Source: Patescibacteria group bacterium
GTDB taxonomy: Bacteria; Patescibacteriota; Minisyncoccia; UBA6257; 1-14-0-10-40-38
Direction of reading: 5' to 3'
Length of the DNA: 64,000 nt
Assembly: GCA_038064975.1 (NCBI GenBank)
Contig: JBBTRX010000007.1
Location: forward strand, 59,026 to 123,025
Shown piece after piece: positions 255 through 64,000 of the stretch. Within the stretch, counting starts at the first letter, position 1, and every line of letters starts with the position of its first letter. The notes beneath the pieces were generated by a model. The model did no database searches. It was not told the DNA's origin and was given only the letters and a program-made list of their open reading frames with translations. The translations under genes were made by a program, and so were the position numbers.

Positions 255-287
255 GAAAACAAAATAAAAACTCCACACAAGGTGGAA
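255..287 (-). terminator. Rho-independent terminator after a tRNA-fragment relic
   Basis: Minus-strand hairpin CCACCUUGUGUGG followed by a U-run (plus-strand A-run 256-270). Confidence 0.5.
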
Positions 288-296
288 TTTTTATTT

Positions 297-350
297 TGCT
301 CCCGAGCCAGGCCTGCCTGCCGGCAGGCAGGCAGGGATCGCCTCTCATTC
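297..350 (-). pseudogene. Degenerate 3' fragment of tRNA-Asn with a 24-nt palindromic insertion
   Basis: Minus strand reads GAGAGGCGA-UCCCUG-[CCUGCCUGCCGGCAGGCAGGCCUG]-GCUCGGGAGCAAAAU. The last 15 nt match the 3' end of the intact tRNA at 871-885. The variable loop and T-arm 5' half are missing. No 5' half is found upstream. Confidence 0.45.
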
Positions 351-829
351 AGTAGAATGACCTACTGGGTCGATCTTCTGACCTCGAAACCTTCAGCTCC
401 TCCTCGGAGCTTGCGGCCCGCGGTTCGATTCCTAACACAGGAAATTTTCAAACCCTGTCTTGTACGGGGTTTTAAAATTTACTCCCTCTGTTGGATACGT
501 TTAGAACTATGCAGTGGATTAAAATAGCTAATGAATTAGAAGTATCTGGTTTTGTATAAAAAAGGAGACCGCCGTCGATACAGAACGGAAGACCACCGTT
601 ATTTTCCGGGACGGCTTGCGAATGTTGCCTTGAGGTTATGACTAGACTCTAACAACTAAAAGAACCCCGACAACGATAGCAGCGACCGCAGAAATTACCT
701 GTGAATACTTAAACGGAAAAAAATGACTGATACCGAAAGCGAGAAAAAACACAACTTCTGCAATGGTAAGTATTGACATCGAATATGATCAATTAAATTT
801 AATGAACGACCTTTTATTCATTCTAACAA

Positions 830-908: not shown

Positions 909-1459
909 CACTTGTCCTACTATTACTAATAGGGGTGGACTATATCATCGCCCATGAAGGGCGCGAGGTACTTCGCCTGCATCAATTAATATTTGATCGG
1001 CTACTCCCTTGCGGGATAGTCTCTACACCTTCTCTGATTACTATCAGAGCTTGGCTCGGGATTGCCCTTGGAAAGGGGTTTCCCCGAATTCACCTCGTTT
1101 GCAACCTAGATTGCTCTAGGAGGCTGCGTTATGCCGGCTTCCACTTCGCGATGACAATTGGCGCATATCAGGATACATTTATCGAGTTCTGATCTCACCC
1201 TCTCCCATGATCTGGTATAACCTTTATCTCCTACGCCGAAATCTTTTTCAGCTGGATTCAGGTGGTGAAAATCAAGAGCTCCTTGATATTTTTCGTATCC
1301 GCATATCTGGCATTGCCCGCCTTTGTAGGCAATAGCCATTGTTTTGATTTTGCGCCGGCGTTTTGCCACTGCACGAATAAGTTCTTCTCGCCGATCGGCA
1401 TATGTCCGCTTGTCAGCCATATATGGTAATTTTACCATTTTATAAGCCAAAGCGTGTTC
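909..1459 (-). mobile_element. Group I intron (551 nt) in the tRNA-Asn anticodon loop, with an HNH homing-endonuclease ORF
   Basis: It lies between U35 and U36 of the tRNA and ends with a 3'-terminal G. About 200 nt of ORF-free sequence at 909-1105 is long enough for a catalytic core. Confidence 0.6.
1106..1450 (-). CDS. HNH homing endonuclease (intron-encoded)
   Basis: Translation has CQICGY...HHLNP...CANCH, an HNH/zinc-finger nuclease motif. The ORF starts 9 nt inside the intron. Confidence 0.7.
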   Translation of the reverse strand: MAYKMVKLPYMADKRTYADRREELIRAVAKRRRKIKTMAIAYKGGQCQICGYEKYQGALDFHHLNPAEKDFGVGDKGYTRSWERVRSELDKCILICANCHREVEAGITQPPRAI

Positions 1460-1838: not shown

Positions 1839-1874
1839 GAAGCTTCGCCGCAGGCCTGGCTTGGAAGCCAATAC

Positions 1875-2623: not shown

Positions 2624-3043
2624 ATGGCAGAATTAAAAACAAAAGCTACAAAAGAAAGTGTTACAAGATTTTTGAATTCTATCGAACCTAAAGAAAAACG
2701 ATCCGACAGCTTTGTCCTCGTTGGACTGTTTCAAAAAATTACAGGCGAAAAGCCAGTTATGTGGGGGTCAAGTATAGTAGGTTTTGGAACGTATCACTAT
2801 CAGTCGGAAAGAAGCACGCAGAAAGGCGACTGGCCTTTGGCAGCATTTTCGCCGCGAAAACAAAGTCTGACGCTGTATGTTATGGAGGGTAATAAAGATA
2901 GTCAAGAATTATTTAAAAAATTAGGGAAATATAAAACAAGTCTTGCTTGTCTATATATTAATAAACTTTCTGATGTAAACCAAAAAGTACTTATAACACT
3001 TATCAAAAAATCATTTCAATATATGCAGAAGGTTCATAAATAA
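2624..3043 (+). CDS. DUF1801 (YdhG-like) domain protein
   Basis: Size and conserved-block pattern resemble DUF1801. The adjacent YdeI-like partner is the commonly seen pairing. Confidence 0.4.
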   Translation: MAELKTKATKESVTRFLNSIEPKEKRSDSFVLVGLFQKITGEKPVMWGSSIVGFGTYHYQSERSTQKGDWPLAAFSPRKQSLTLYVMEGNKDSQELFKKLGKYKTSLACLYINKLSDVNQKVLITLIKKSFQYMQKVHK

Positions 3044-3051
3044 TAATCCTC

Positions 3052-3343: not shown

Positions 3344-6300
3344 TTAAGGAATAACGTTGTAAAACGAATGAATGCTGTTTTGTGTTTCTGCGTCTACTAT
3401 GCCGGTTTCGGATAATTTATTTTTCTTTTGGAAACGAATCACTGCCTGGCGCGTCAGATTGCCATAGTACCCGCTCACCGTTCCCTCGGGATAGATAATT
3501 TTATTTTGCGCCAAATACAGTTGAAGGAGCATTACGTCCTCACCGGAGGAACCCACTAGTAATACCCGTGAGAATGGCTTATCGGTAAGTCCTCCCCCTT
3601 TGCACCCTAATGTATTCATATACATTCGTGTTGAAGCGCCAAAAATTCCCGTCCCCCCTCCTGCAGGAATACCAACCGGAATAAGGATTTCTGTCGCATG
3701 CGTATTTTGAAGTTCTTTTAAAGCAGCTGCAGTTAGTGAACCGAAGAACGTTGTCTCCTTACCCGACGATCCTGTACCAGAAGAAGCTATGATGAATCCT
3801 TGTGCATTTAAACATTGTTGGAGAACTTTCACATCGTTTCCTGTATCCCCCGTTCGCAAACTACGTGTAAATGTAAACGAACCTCCGGCACTTTTAGTCG
3901 TCGCATCAATGACGTTTGAATATTCAGAATCTCCCGCACTGTTGTATGCGCGAATGCGAAAGTAGTACTTCGTGTTAGCGGTAAGACTTTTCTCGTTCCA
4001 GAAATAATAATGCGGCGGCAAGTCGCGGATTTGCGCGAAGTTCGTTCCATTAGTACTCATTTCAAGCTTATATCCCGTTTGCCCTTCCGAACCGCCTTTC
4101 CAAAACAAGCGAATCTCGTTTTCTGAAATAGCATAAGCAGTCACGTTACTCGGTGACTCCGAAAGAATTGAGTTTACGGGCGGAGGAAGCAAAGCTGTGT
4201 CGCAATTTTGAGTAGGAGTGAACGCCACTATTTCCGAATACGCTTGCGCTGCGGAATAGAGCACGCGCACGGAATACGATTGCCCGCTTACCAATACGAG
4301 CGGCTGGGTTATCACCGTCGGCACGAAGCCCTGAGGCACAATCGCCACGAGCGTCCCTGCCGGAACAAATTTATACCAAAAGCCATTCACCCAATTTCCA
4401 TCAGTATCAATATCAACATAAAATCCTTGCGCGCCAGAGGATCCGTTTTCTAGCCATGAAACTGTTGCTTCCGTTGCGCTTCCGGAACAGAACGTGGACA
4501 CCGTGGGCGGAGAGAGTGGATCTCCCGGTGGCGGAGGTGGTGGAGGTGGTGGTGACGGAGCGCTATCGTTGTCTAATAGAGTAACTGTCCCCGTATTTGA
4601 AGAACTGGTTGTATACCCAGCGCTTGGCACAATCATTACCGTCACGCTTTCCGTATTCTCAACATTCACATCATTAATCGGAATGACATCAACTAAAACA
4701 GATGATTGATTGGCAGCAATCACAGGTGAAGTAATAATTGTCTGATAGTCCACACCATTCGTTGCTGTTCCACTAATGGAAATGACGATAGGCAGAGCGT
4801 TTGCAGTGCTTCCTGTGCGCGAAATAGTGAATAGTCCGGTATCCGAGCCAGCTTCTGATGCAGTCGCGTCTGTTGTAGAGATAGAAACAGCCGGTAAAGA
4901 AACCGCTGTTTCAAATCCAGAGCGAATGTAATTGTTTACGTTTGCTGCAGTATACGCATCATTCCAATTCCCTTTTGATTGTTGGAGAGCTCCAGTAATA
5001 AACGCGCTGTAAGTCCCCACTCCGCCTATGCTTGCGTTATACGTTGCAACGGAACGCATTGGGTCCAAGTAGGTTTGCTTCAACACTCCTGACGTAGTAT
5101 CTCCCACTTGGTTTTTCCAAAAGCCAAGCGTTTGAAGTGTTTGGTTTATCGTCGTCCACTTTGTAGCGCCACTATCGGGAGTACTAGAATAAAAAGTATT
5201 ATTACTACTATTAAATTCGCTAAAGCCACCAGACTGCTGATGGTCAAGATGGGGAGTAGTTAAAGAAGAATGTTGGAAATTGTTTCCGCTCAGGGAAATA
5301 TTAGTGACTCGCGGAGCTACACCATCAATCTGCAGGCCGCCACCCCATTCATAGATCGTATTATTCTGAAGAGCGAGATTATGAATACCAAAATCCAATT
5401 GACCATTCTCGCCTTTATGCATCCCTTGCATCGCGATGGCAACGGGCTGCGTACCTAGTACGTTGTTTGCGATGATATTATCCGCGATAGTTCCGGAACT
5501 CACGTTTGAGATAACCATTCCCCATCCACGCTTCTCTGAGGAGTTAATATTTTTTCCATCCAGAATAACATTATCTTGAATATCAATCATTACCCCATTT
5601 GCCGCTGGACTATTACCTCCACCTGCAACAAATGCAATACTATTTCGAACAAAAAGATTATTTTCTATCACGCCGCCCGAACGCATTTGTGCGCCATGAG
5701 AAGATCCGTCCGCTATAATGTTTCCGCGCAAGATGACGCCCGAGTTGCCGTTATCAATATAAATATTATGGCTAAAGATATCCGCACCGGCACCCGCAAC
5801 CGTTTCGCTCCAGCCATTGTGATAAAAAACATTTTCTTCCATCAACAAACCCTGCACGTCATATGCATACATTCCCTGTGAGCTTCCGTTCACCGAATGC
5901 ACGGTATAAGAATTCAGGATGACCGAGCGCCTCAATGTATAATTTTGAAGACTTCCGCCAAAACCCTGAAAAACAATGCCGGTACGATATCCTTCAATTT
6001 TGAAGTCTTCAAAAAGAATATTAGAACCAGGTTGCAGGAAAGACACTCCAGCCTCATTACCATTTGCTCCATCATAGGTATCGGCTAAAAAATGTAATCC
6101 CGTAAAAGCGACATTAGTAATAGTAGGCGGAGAGCCGCCTCCGTTATTAGTCCACACTGCCCCTCCAGTACCAGTCTTAAGCAAAGGCCGCACTGAACTC
6201 ACGCCATAGGAAGATATGAGCATTGGCTCTGATGCAGATCTTCCGGACATTTTCCATTGCCCGAGCGATTCATTAAAAACATCTCCTCTTTTCAGTAACA

Positions 6301-6586
6301 GCCCATCAGGATAGCCATGTCGCAACAAGGATTTACCTGCGCTGATTGTCTTTTTTGCCGTTCCTTCGCTTAACCCATCATTTGTATCGCTTCCCGTAGA
6401 TGAGCTCACATACACAACTCTTGTGTCCGCGCTCGGAGAAAATTCTGTCCATCCGGAACCGGACGACGAACCTAATTGAGCGAGAAGCACCTCATTGCCA
6501 TTTGGAAAACTAGAAACGTAAGTACTATAGAGAAAGGCCACGACACCGATTATGGCTACGAATGTTAAATTTTTCCGGTTAACCAT
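3344..6586 (-). CDS. Large secreted/surface protein: parallel beta-helix, Calx-beta-like, poly-Pro linker, FN3, two C-terminal peptidoglycan-binding (PG_binding_1) domains
   Basis: N-terminal TM/signal. Beta-helix repeats (NNIIANNV, NNLFVRN, Gly/Asn ladders). Calx-beta-like LFTISRTGSTANALPIVISISGTATNGVDYQ. PPPPPPPPPG linker. FN3 (YAISENEIRLFWKG...YYFRIRAYNSAGDSEYS). Two PG-binding repeats (DVKVLQQCLNAQGF; DVMLLQLYLAQNKI...LTRQAVIRFQ). Confidence 0.65.
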   Translation of the reverse strand: MVNRKNLTFVAIIGVVAFLYSTYVSSFPNGNEVLLAQLGSSSGSGWTEFSPSADTRVVYVSSSTGSDTNDGLSEGTAKKTISAGKSLLRHGYPDGLLLKRGDVFNESLGQWKMSGRSASEPMLISSYGVSSVRPLLKTGTGGAVWTNNGGGSPPTITNVAFTGLHFLADTYDGANGNEAGVSFLQPGSNILFEDFKIEGYRTGIVFQGFGGSLQNYTLRRSVILNSYTVHSVNGSSQGMYAYDVQGLLMEENVFYHNGWSETVAGAGADIFSHNIYIDNGNSGVILRGNIIADGSSHGAQMRSGGVIENNLFVRNSIAFVAGGGNSPAANGVMIDIQDNVILDGKNINSSEKRGWGMVISNVSSGTIADNIIANNVLGTQPVAIAMQGMHKGENGQLDFGIHNLALQNNTIYEWGGGLQIDGVAPRVTNISLSGNNFQHSSLTTPHLDHQQSGGFSEFNSSNNTFYSSTPDSGATKWTTINQTLQTLGFWKNQVGDTTSGVLKQTYLDPMRSVATYNASIGGVGTYSAFITGALQQSKGNWNDAYTAANVNNYIRSGFETAVSLPAVSISTTDATASEAGSDTGLFTISRTGSTANALPIVISISGTATNGVDYQTIITSPVIAANQSSVLVDVIPINDVNVENTESVTVMIVPSAGYTTSSSNTGTVTLLDNDSAPSPPPPPPPPPGDPLSPPTVSTFCSGSATEATVSWLENGSSGAQGFYVDIDTDGNWVNGFWYKFVPAGTLVAIVPQGFVPTVITQPLVLVSGQSYSVRVLYSAAQAYSEIVAFTPTQNCDTALLPPPVNSILSESPSNVTAYAISENEIRLFWKGGSEGQTGYKLEMSTNGTNFAQIRDLPPHYYFWNEKSLTANTKYYFRIRAYNSAGDSEYSNVIDATTKSAGGSFTFTRSLRTGDTGNDVKVLQQCLNAQGFIIASSGTGSSGKETTFFGSLTAAALKELQNTHATEILIPVGIPAGGGTGIFGASTRMYMNTLGCKGGGLTDKPFSRVLLVGSSGEDVMLLQLYLAQNKIIYPEGTVSGYYGNLTRQAVIRFQKKNKLSETGIVDAETQNSIHSFYNVIP

Positions 6587-8114: not shown

Positions 8115-8984
8115 ATGAACAGGATCTTCCATCATCGGTTATTCTTCCCCATAGCACTTATCGTGCTTGTTGCTGTTTATTCTCTTGTCGTGTGGGGACC
8201 GGCCTTGGGAGAGCAATCAGATCCGCCATCTTTTCCAGCAAATATTGCGGAAAAGCAGGAAGACGACTCAATCACTATTCCATCTACTCCAAAACCAGTA
8301 CTTTTCCGCTACGTAGAAATTATAGATAGCTGTGGGCCCCATTATAATGGAGCCTGCGTTAATATGCGTTCCGGACCCGGAGAAACCTATCCCGTCGTTA
8401 GCAAACTCCGTACTGGCATGGTGCTGAAAGTTAAAGACAGCGTTACCACAGAAGGAGGTAAGACCTGGTACGAACTTCTACCCGATGATCATGTACGCTA
8501 TCCGGAACGGGTAACGTCAGATTGGTATGTCTCCGCTGAGGTCGTGCGCGTATTTTATGATGACGGAAGTCATACGCTTCAACGAGGAGGAACCGGATCA
8601 ACGATCGTAAAAACTATCGTTATCAATCGTTCTCTTCAAGAGCTCTACGCGTATGAAAATGGAACTTTAGTAATGCAAATACCTATTTCCACCGGAAAGG
8701 AATTTACTCCCACTCCTCGCGGCACATTTACGGTATACAAGATGACACCGAGCCGCTACATGCAGGGCCCATTGCCTGGCATCAGCGATCAGTACTACGA
8801 CTTGCCCGGCGTCCCTTGGAATCTGTACTTTACGAACGGCGGCGCAGCTATTCACGGCGCGTATTGGCACGATAATTTTGGGCAACCTTGGTCACACGGA
8901 TGCGTCAATCTTCCGCTTGACAAAGCGAAAGAACTTTACCTTTGGGCTGAAGCTGGCATGTCCGTGACGGTGAAAGATTCATGA
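8115..8984 (+). CDS. L,D-transpeptidase (YkuD domain) with SH3b-like domain
   Basis: Signal/TM. SH3_3-like block (YNGACVNMRSGPGETYPVVSKLRTGMVLKV). C-terminal HGAYWHDNFGQPWSHGCVNL catalytic His/Cys. Confidence 0.7.
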   Translation: MNRIFHHRLFFPIALIVLVAVYSLVVWGPALGEQSDPPSFPANIAEKQEDDSITIPSTPKPVLFRYVEIIDSCGPHYNGACVNMRSGPGETYPVVSKLRTGMVLKVKDSVTTEGGKTWYELLPDDHVRYPERVTSDWYVSAEVVRVFYDDGSHTLQRGGTGSTIVKTIVINRSLQELYAYENGTLVMQIPISTGKEFTPTPRGTFTVYKMTPSRYMQGPLPGISDQYYDLPGVPWNLYFTNGGAAIHGAYWHDNFGQPWSHGCVNLPLDKAKELYLWAEAGMSVTVKDS

Positions 8985-62880: not shown

Positions 62881-63165
62881 TTACCTAACTATGAGTGCTT
62901 GCCTTACAGTTGCCCCAATCTTACGCGGTCCGACAAATGCCGAACTGACGCATCGTGACTTTAAGGCTCCACGACGAACACCTTCAAATGAAAATGAATC
63001 GACACCGACTATTCTCTTTAAAAAAGAAGAATAATCAAAGTTTAATTGATCCACGAGCAGCTTCCGCTACCCGTGCCTTGTTACGACTTAGCCCTTGTCA
63101 CCGAACCTACCCTAATCCAGCAAGCTGAACTTTAGGTATTCCCGGCTTCCTTGACTTGACGGGCG

Positions 63166-63700
63166 AATATTTTCTCAAAAACTGAGAATGAATGTTCCCA
63201 CTGCACAGACGGATTTCCCGTATGCAGCGAGCTCAATGCATCGTTTGCTTTAATGTGAGCAAGCTTTGTAAGCCTGAGTCGGTAAGATGTTCCCCTTCTT
63301 TGATTGCATCCATAATTTCGCAGAAAACTTTGAAATCATGCCTCTTAGATGGAAAACGTAACGGATATTTCTTGAAAAACGGAATAATAATGTTTTCCAA
63401 GTCTTTCCGATTAGCGACTTCAAACCGGTAGCAATGCTGGTGATTTTTTCTACTATCTTTCTGGAAATATACATTTCCACACTGGAAAAAATCTTTTACA
63501 GCATCAAGGACTGTCTTGTCTTTTTCTACCAGCTTGATATAGAACCGTGGTTCTATTCTTGCTCGCCTGATTCGTTCCGTAGATTCATTGATATTGCGAA
63601 CATACGCAGTAAAGCTTCCTTCGCCATCAACTAATCCAACGATATAATCAGGATTAAACATTGTATTGAGTGAGGGCCTTCTTCCGACCTTATATCGGAA
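63166..63700 (-). mobile_element. Intron-like insertion (probable group I intron) in 16S near E. coli position ~1395; 5' boundary uncertain
   Basis: Canonical 16S sequence resumes at CGCCCGUCA (plus 63165 downward). The insertion contains a complete LAGLIDADG ORF. Confidence 0.5.
63233..63661 (-). CDS. LAGLIDADG homing endonuclease (single-motif, I-CreI-like size)
   Basis: N-terminal YIVGLVDGEGSF LAGLIDADG motif; 142 aa. Confidence 0.75.
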   Translation of the reverse strand: MFNPDYIVGLVDGEGSFTAYVRNINESTERIRRARIEPRFYIKLVEKDKTVLDAVKDFFQCGNVYFQKDSRKNHQHCYRFEVANRKDLENIIIPFFKKYPLRFPSKRHDFKVFCEIMDAIKEGEHLTDSGLQSLLTLKQTMH

Positions 63701-64000
63701 TACTATGCCTCAGCTGACTTCTGACGCTGCGTTAGTTTTTATGATACCACGGCATCTTGCCATGGACAGCCATCAGATCTCCACAGGTCACGTAATATAC
63801 TATTCCAAACATCCGAGACGAACCTTTTCCCGTGATCTTCCTTATCCTCACCGCCCACTGATAAGTCGATCGATTCTCCGCGTGTTGCGGATACGTCTTG
63901 GCTGTTTTTTGCCGACAGATCCTCCATCTCGCCCCTTCACAGAGGCGGACTATCTTTGGCTACGCTCCGACTAGACTTCATCGGAGGAGTGGATTCAAAC

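Follow-up and report, generated by a model that had tools for sequence, protein, structure and literature searches.

A duplicated tRNA-Asn 3' end as one arm of a possibly old palindromic element in Paceibacteria

Several described systems invite comparison when part of a tRNA gene is found twice. Quasi-palindrome template-switch mutation and the extension of palindromes at hairpins are established replication-error mechanisms, Nanoarchaeum equitans has split tRNA genes, and for the att sites of integrated elements a scheme of sublocations is in use that is reportedly that of Williams 2002. Here we analyze a 64-kb stretch of Patescibacteria (Paceibacteria) DNA, referred to as the window (WIN in comparisons between loci), in which the 3' end of a tRNA-Asn gene occurs a second time. 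The source contig, 121.5 kb long, comes from a groundwater metagenome (Hainich H51, ENA ERZ1292627), and we added 8.1 kb of left flank from contig L001, in which position 8127 corresponds to window position 1, for a total of 72 kb. The second copy, or relic, forms the sense arm of an imperfect palindrome of ~150 nt, which we call X (442-292). The reading we favor, with a probability of roughly 0.45, is that X is an old, vertically inherited, tRNA-Asn-derived element in the tRNA trailer of one Paceibacteria subclade. Since a related genome carries the same element beside the same tRNA gene, the copy would be a remnant that has been passed down and copied anew more than once, as opposed to a recent integration scar or a functional half-tRNA.

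The tRNA gene itself is of a published type. Group I introns at anticodon position 35/36 of tRNA-Asn have already been reported for Patescibacteria, and the HNH-bearing examples reported number only four (Nakagawa et al., mSystems 2026, PMC13011429). The window gene matches the intron-containing tRNA-Asn(GUU) genes of that paper in its intron at 35/36, its HNH gene and its invisibility to standard tRNA finders. As a term search of the paper returns no mention of duplicated or pseudogene tRNA copies, the tRNA-derived element downstream of the window gene appears undescribed there, as far as those terms reach.

All relevant features lie on the minus strand. The 5' exon, through U35, occupies 1460-1493 (21.8 bits at 1402-1493 with R1, a covariance model built on six tRNA-Asn sequences from this clade) and ends in U, as expected ahead of a group I 5' splice site. 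The intron of 551 nt follows at 909-1459 (Rfam RF00028, 59.3 bits, at 916-1184) and contains an open reading frame for an HNH endonuclease at 1420-1106 (Pfam HNH, E 5e-4; the score of 20.6 bits is just under the curated cut-off of 21.4). The 3' exon lies at 871-908, with the discriminator G at 871 (R1, 26.2 bits at 868-935), and the terminator of the gene, T0, at 833-869 (16 pairs and a U-run in a terminator scan). The preliminary description of this DNA took the gene to be intact; because the intron interrupts it, ARAGORN misses it and reports zero tRNAs across the whole window. In independent Logan assemblies of this organism, contigs start at the junction of 5' exon and intron or within the intron (L002-L004 and L006; window 1455-1458 and 1030), perhaps because the population contains variants with and without the intron or because the assembly graph branches at the tRNA.

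From 5' to 3', the minus strand thus carries the 5' exon, the intron, the 3' exon, T0, and a gene for a 45-aa protein (ORF45, 779-642), followed by a spacer of ~160 nt, a hairpin at 479-442, the interval studied here, and the element's own terminator, T2 (298-260). Beyond T2, at ~156, begins a minus-strand gene for a surface protein of 2279 aa. All contigs of the window's species are identical in sequence at this locus.

The duplication is best seen in CCTGGCTCGGGAGCAAAATA, an exact 20-nt repeat that occurs in two copies only, at 292-311 and 864-883 on the minus strand. It comprises the last 15 nt of the tRNA gene and 5 nt of trailer, and the expectation for an exact match of 20 nt, from shuffling, is 0.02. 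The first copy (883-864), within the 3' exon and trailer, belongs to the tRNA 3' half, A0. The second copy of the tRNA end that had been noticed earlier is therefore real, with an exact repeat of 20 nt where 15 nt had been given and a start-to-start spacing of 572 nt instead of about 520 bp. When the 24 nt at 312-335 are set aside, the copies agree at 25/25 positions, from the T-loop CGA to the fifth nucleotide after the gene end. Their homology then continues through the terminators, for 53 columns in all (score 62, shuffle null 15.9 +/- 3.0). T2 is an inverted repeat (I3) with 17-nt arms at 260-276 and 282-298 that are 94% complementary in the repeat search; it folds as a hairpin and aligns with T0. 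The two terminators are parts of the same duplicated unit that have diverged to ~65-75% identity. A hairpin does follow each copy, as had been stated, and the alignment, which runs through both, shows that the two hairpins are not unrelated. Soft local alignments of 230-800 against the tRNA and intron region found nothing past the 3' end and terminator.

The sense arm, A2 (292-340), consists of CGATCCCTG (340-332) and CCTGGCTCGGGAGCAAAATA (311-292), divided by an insertion. The AGGCGA that had been assigned to the anticodon stem is present at 340-345; its descent from that stem cannot be told from descent from the T-loop GTTCGA, because both end in CGA. A decayed third module of the kind "tRNA end plus terminator" may lie at 442-517 on the minus strand, where AGTTCTAAACGTATCCAACAGAGGGAGTAAAT is followed by the hairpin 479-442. 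Its similarity to A0 and T0 is weak (score 23 versus 15.0 +/- 2.4, p ~0.009), and it is 82.5% identical over 40 nt to L047 1578-1617, upstream of the ORF45 of that locus; these relatives in L047 suggest, at the level of sequence, multiple rounds of duplication. Elsewhere in the window, between the acylphosphatase and lipase genes, GCAGGCCTGGCTTGGAAGCCAA at 1850-1871 (plus strand) resembles the junction of palindrome and copy, GCAGGCCTGGCTCGGGAGCAAA, at 19/22 positions on the opposite strand. This could be a further fragment or a chance match (rough estimate, E ~0.01).

Could the second copy be a half-tRNA, or a split tRNA gene whose product is joined to a separately encoded 5' half? It has an exact acceptor 3' strand with the discriminator and a terminator of its own, and in being a stand-alone piece with an acceptor 3' strand it is like the split genes of Nanoarchaeum equitans. 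Here, though, the piece comes without a T-arm, an anticodon stem, a partner half or a complementary leader, and beside a complete gene. R1 gives 26.2 and 21.8 bits for the two exons of the gene and only 4.7 bits (E 1.7) for the second copy (296-337), which bears out the earlier view of the latter as partial and non-functional. The T-stem 5' strand, the variable loop and the anticodon stem are missing, and the complete, intron-containing tRNA-Asn gene stands 572 nt away. No 5' half with a complementary leader was found in the 72 kb, all occurrences of UCCCGAG falling within the true gene or its intron, and the setting is that of a bacterial group I intron instead of archaeal tRNA splicing. A half-tRNA, offered earlier as an alternative, is in our judgment barely credible. 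The arrangement does recur in related genomes, as we describe below, yet not as a functional split tRNA.

X as a whole runs from an antisense arm (A') through a conserved hairpin (H1) and a variable hairpin (H2) to the sense copy and its terminator. A', UCCUGUGUUAGGAAUCGAACC, lies at 422-442 (minus strand) in an inverted repeat, I1, that pairs 414-442 with 872-900 (29 nt, 72%). It can pair with the tRNA along the T-loop, T-stem and acceptor 3' strand, at 20/24 positions by hand count, 3 of them as G.U. The T-loop-like motif without a matching stem that had been reported on the plus strand, GGTTCGATTCC at 422-432, exists and falls inside A', without a T-stem, so that it belongs to the same tRNA-derived material. 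We also considered the plus strand of 370-445 as a remnant of a tRNA, transfer-messenger RNA (tmRNA) or tRNA-Ser and rejected this, as only the 11-nt T-loop motif scores.

H1 (383-432, minus strand) is 88.2% identical over 51 nt to positions 2294-2344 of L048/L049 (E 4e-12), and its 13/13 pairs form in both WIN and L048. H2, GAUCGACCCAGUAGGUCAUUCUACUGAAUGAGAGGCGAUC (336-375, minus strand), is taken from the minimum-free-energy (MFE) structure; L048 has a short CCGCAGCAGCGG hairpin in its place, and a 32-nt stretch of H2 (373-342) is 84% identical to L020 2350-2381. A likeness of 375-332 to the 5' half of a tRNA (CCC-AGTAGGTCA...GAGAGGCG) is marginal (p 0.015 with shuffles, 0.004 with genomic windows); the covariance model sees nothing there, the likeness is absent from L048, and we do not rely on it. 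In the MFE structure A' pairs with 311-300 of A2, and this A':A2 helix closes a four-way junction made with H1, H2 and the hairpin of the inserted palindrome, directly followed by the terminator. X is single-copy, no further copy being found in the 72 kb of window and left flank.

The insertion that divides A2 occupies 24 nt (312-335) and is made up of a 20-nt palindrome and a 4-nt duplication. As described before, CCTGCCTGCCGGCAGGCAGG (312-331) is a perfect palindrome flanked by a short duplication, which reads CAGG/CAGG on the plus strand and CCUG on the minus strand. The palindrome has no second occurrence in the window, where 0.00 are expected. Its earlier interpretation as an insertion also holds, since the homologous copy in L048/L049 is uninterrupted, and the palindrome is therefore a private, lineage-specific insertion. 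It would have arisen by slippage at a CCTG repeat followed by fold-back copying. In the MFE structure it forms a separate 10-bp hairpin and leaves the A':A2 helix undisturbed, and it may have been tolerated because its effect is limited to one added side hairpin.

The age of X is indicated by related genomes. L048 and L049 are two independent assemblies from a related groundwater member of Paceibacteria whose ORF45 is 86% identical to that of the window. They have, in order, a tRNA-Asn gene with a group I intron lacking an open reading frame, a terminator (T1), an element of ~110 nt, T2 and ORF45. Between WIN and L048, identity is 88.2% for H1, 79% for the ORF45 DNA and 69% for the intron, and other intergenic DNA is unalignable. 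The end of the L048 element, GAGAGGCGAATCCAGCTCCCAGAGCATCGACATAGAAAA, is a direct repeat, at 31/33 positions, of the tRNA end and trailer found in the same genome, CGAATCCAGCTCCCGGAGCATCGACATAAAAAA. This copy begins at the same T-loop CGA, with the same junction GAGAGG|CGA as in the window, and has no palindrome. Judged by alignment, the window copy is homologous to the one in L048/L049, and the similarity first noted in the window thus holds both against the complete tRNA locus (53 columns) and in a relative (31/33).

Two more genomes carry variants of the element. In L012 the inverted copy comprises the acceptor strand and 6 nt of trailer, matching at 13/13 positions, and the fold is comparable to the WIN junction; from this match, the terminator hairpin is merely extended outward, into a single long quasi-palindrome with the terminator loop at its centre. 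L016 shows an antisense version of a T-arm motif (UUAGGGAUCGAAAACCU), an A/U-rich hairpin and a decayed sense copy, together with a 64-nt direct repeat (~90%), beyond ORF45, of the last 6 nt of the tRNA plus terminator. Antisense motifs equivalent to A' thus occur in L048, L016 and L012. The hairpins of L016 and L012 are unrelated in sequence and share their position and an ACC...GGU closure. L016 and L048 also share the gene order def-fmt-hpf-tRNA-Asn-X-ORF45, so that X predates their divergence and has been inherited vertically. The window has the order tRNA-ORF45-X, with different outer neighbours, where L048 and L016 have tRNA-X-ORF45; the window lineage is the rearranged one.

The intron offers another possible source, namely that repair of a break made by the HNH endonuclease at tRNA-Asn produced both the copy and the palindrome, a link to intron homing that the preliminary description had also raised. 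The window tRNA-Asn does carry an HNH-encoding intron, and introns are present in L012 and L048 too. Yet the same element sits behind an intron-less tRNA-Asn in L016, the L048 intron has no endonuclease gene, the copy starts in the T-loop, ~20 nt from the 35/36 insertion site, and no intron sequence is duplicated. We consider an origin by homing highly improbable.

A2 resembles the tRNA-Asn of its own genome (20/20 in WIN, 19/20 in L048, 17/21 in L012) more than foreign tRNA-Asn (13-17/20), and the acceptor and T-stem sequences of tRNA-Asn vary among genomes. X being ancestral, A2 must therefore have tracked the lineage-specific changes of the live tRNA gene. Short-tract gene conversion from the constrained gene, or selection on A2, would fit this tracking, with four genomes to go by.

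Two further loci contain repeats of a related kind. L031 has three copies, 87-89% identical, of an element of 68-135 nt (1598-1687, 2960-3049 and 3746-3813, the last reaching ~3885), with a T-loop-like TTCGAACCC and the end AAATCG(G/C)GAGCA. A gene terminator precedes each copy, and ORF45 lies with one other gene between two of the copies; part of the element is shared, inverted, with L020 (91% over 33 nt). L040 has a 77-nt direct repeat (2230-2306 and 4018-4095) downstream of tRNA-Glu and tRNA-Val, which brackets ORF45 and its neighbours. As an imperfect palindrome of ~100-150 nt just past terminators, with a related element present three times in L031, X is like repetitive extragenic palindromic (REP) and bacterial interspersed mosaic elements (BIME) and repeats resembling miniature inverted-repeat transposable elements (MITE). 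Unlike these, X occurs once in 72 kb, its arms reproduce the tRNA-Asn of the host in place of a fixed element sequence, and there is no sign of a target-site duplication around the element as a whole; the multi-copy habit of MITE and REP sequences is likewise missing.

A direct repeat of a tRNA 3' end most readily recalls integration, and the preliminary description read the locus as a scar of integration or excision. In its fullest version, the locus would be a degenerate att array, in which a tyrosine recombinase inserted small cassettes without integrases, cis-mobilisable remnants, into the tRNA-Asn T-loop. The att repeats would be A0, A2 and the decayed module in the middle; A', H1 and the GAGAGG junction would be the element-side arm of attP; and ORF45 would be a second cassette. 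The repeat has the shape expected of an attachment scar, starting at the T-loop CGA in both genomes (25/25 in WIN, 31/33 in L048) and running on past the mature 3' end. GAGAGG, the junction on the side of the element, is conserved, and the conservation of H1 fits arm sites for a recombinase. Module orders differ between genomes (A-ORF45-A-X-A in WIN, A-X-A-ORF45-A in L016, A-X-A-ORF45 in L048), genes in L031 are separated by three copies of a related element, and ORF45 lies no more than ~600 nt from a tRNA gene in 8 of ~35 loci. Like attL/attR repeats and integrase-less remnants, then, the locus has a repeat that starts in the T-loop and passes the 3' end, and tandem repeats that bound small modules.

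Against such an array, no integrase or recombinase was found from -8.1 to +12.6 kb of the window locus, nor at the L048, L016 and L012 loci. The window check used a precomputed Pfam list, and two unannotated left-hand proteins likewise have no such match; the 8.1 kb left of the window, where an integrase had been suggested as worth seeking, thus contain none. Neither H1, the whole interval nor ORF45 matched the phage and viral collections, and neither polymorphism nor foreign origin of the repeat-bounded segment was found, ORF45 being the sole gene between the repeats. The synteny shared by L016 and L048 is an old, stable arrangement, and a scar of recent integration is not supported. The unit is ~110-570 nt, its terminators are homologous, as fits a duplicated unit, and the antisense tRNA copy is no feature of att sites. 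ORF45 also stands beside Ser, Tyr and Leu tRNAs without flanking copies of those tRNAs. We regard the att array as possible, if unlikely, and a very old att origin of the copy as conceivable. As a separate candidate we inspected X for an integron attC site (RYYYAAC ... GTTRRRY) and rejected it, GTTAGGA in WIN and GTTAGGG in L016 failing the final Y and L012 and L048 having no motif.

The conservation and folding of X raise the different possibility that it is a functional structured RNA derived from the tRNA-Asn trailer. Its A':A2 helix, of 12-17 bp, would mimic the stacked acceptor/T-stem minihelix with a tRNA 3' end; X would be cut and CCA-tailed by the enzymes of tRNA end processing, after which it would serve as a decoy or a regulator, for instance if A' paired alternatively with the tRNA or with A2. 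The best argument is H1, which is conserved above the neighbouring gene and shows one compensatory change, A-U to G-C, and one change from G.U to G-C. For WIN and L012, folding predicts a four-way junction that the A':A2 helix closes, with z-scores of -4.55 (WIN 296-445; -8.1 with both flanking hairpins) and -5.5, and L048 scores -4.35. On the tRNA strand, three of the pairs in the WIN closing helix are G.U, A2 retains the exact 3' end and discriminator, and the L016 and L012 hairpins keep position and ACC...GGU closure in unrelated sequence.

The same data hold much that speaks against an RNA. With two sequences the covariation in H1 has no statistical power, and 253/500 shuffles do equally well. 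Strand preference in folding is mixed, the tRNA strand being better in WIN and L048 and the opposite strand in L012 and L016. The closing helix of L048 is weak (8/13, hand count), the MFE structure there preferring other pairings, and the L016 sense copy has decayed. No promoter was found for X, which starts right after a terminator, and Rfam matched no family to the element, either at its place in the window, even at E 10, or in four related loci at permissive thresholds. A structured RNA of this kind seems to us quite unlikely. Taken more broadly, the idea that X is an undescribed functional element linked to tRNA-Asn in Paceibacteria, be it an RNA or a recombination site, made from antisense and sense tRNA copies around a conserved hairpin, is unlikely in our estimation. 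Were it true, X could be a processed tRNA-minihelix mimic that governs how the only tRNA-Asn gene is matured or read through, or else a recombination core that shuffles small cassettes such as ORF45.

We return to the old local duplication as the preferred account. Its starting event would be a local duplication of the module from T-loop to trailer plus terminator, giving one direct and one inverted copy. The inverted copy would have arisen by template switching at the terminator hairpin, a route that needs no integrase-borne element, and the long quasi-palindrome of L012 is the product expected from it. Here the comparison with quasi-palindrome template-switch mutations is close: the inverted copy in L012 prolongs the terminator hairpin into the acceptor strand (13/13), and the WIN insertion is a perfect palindrome on a CCTG repeat. 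Unlike such mutations, the product has been kept across genomes and a part of it, H1, is conserved. Concerted evolution would have maintained the copy, with short-tract gene conversion running from the constrained tRNA gene into A2 while the terminators drifted, and recombination among the repeats would have shifted ORF45 relative to X. A2 has no tRNA activity. X would at most probably serve as a second, fail-safe terminator or as an insulator before the promoter of the 2279-aa gene, and it may also stop A' from pairing with the tRNA in read-through RNA.

Several observations weigh against this account. H1 is better conserved than the neighbouring protein gene, which passive duplication would not predict and which points to function or to recent transfer. 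Gene conversion over tracts of 20-33 nt is inefficient, and conversion is assumed here. The identity block from the T-loop past the 3' end has the classical shape of an integrase att repeat. X is carried by only four genomes, a number from which covariation draws no statistical power. As the strand preference of the folds is inconsistent, a role at the RNA level is unproven, and for X a promoter was not found.

ORF45 (642-779, minus strand) encodes a conserved membrane protein of 45 aa with two predicted helices. It is called as a gene on the source contig, is preceded ~45 nt upstream by an extended -10 element (TTTGTTAGAAT) and has 41 homologues (67-100% identity, nearly all of 45 aa, range 42-47, with 12 invariant columns); by this conservation we take it that ORF45 is a real gene. 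The protein is highly conserved across Paceibacteria and matches no Pfam family. With its profile, 29 loci were found in species-representative genomes and 5 in metagenomes, and the element is absent from all 5 metagenome loci. The tRNA genes near ORF45 are those for Asn, Ser, Glu, Tyr and Leu (L012-L054). In L016, L021 and L035, an intron-less tRNA-Asn lies just upstream of ORF45 on the same strand, and none of the contexts of P0123, P0126, P0127, P0128 and P0138 has a tRNA-Asn neighbourhood.

On either side of the locus, a minus-strand gene encodes a very large secreted protein with fn3 and PG_binding_1 domains: one of 1080 aa (window 3344-6586) and the surface protein of 2279 aa (L001 1443-8282, that is, window <1-156). 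A search for synteny through the neighbouring GDSL lipase gave no relative among GTDB representatives, its homologues (54-65% identity) lying in unrelated contexts. At the far end of the window, a fragment of the 16S rRNA 3' end (63052-63166, minus strand; Rfam positions 1390-1520) lies ~500 nt from a match to a group II intron domain (63675-63751, minus strand; RF01998, 40.8 bits, above the gathering score), with an open reading frame of 142 aa between them (63233-63661). In PMC13011429, group II introns are not reported for Patescibacteria.

Partial tRNA copies are routinely taken as footprints of integrated elements, and here such a copy would have been inherited together with its tRNA gene. 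X would then be a clean, small example of concerted evolution or of tRNA mimicry in a reduced genome. If X is not functional, it counsels caution against calling genomic islands in these genomes from tRNA copies alone. If the conserved hairpin and arms are functional, they would constitute a novel cis element linked to an intron-bearing Patescibacteria tRNA whose gene is single-copy, and X would also provide a handle on a widespread, unannotated membrane protein of 45 aa.

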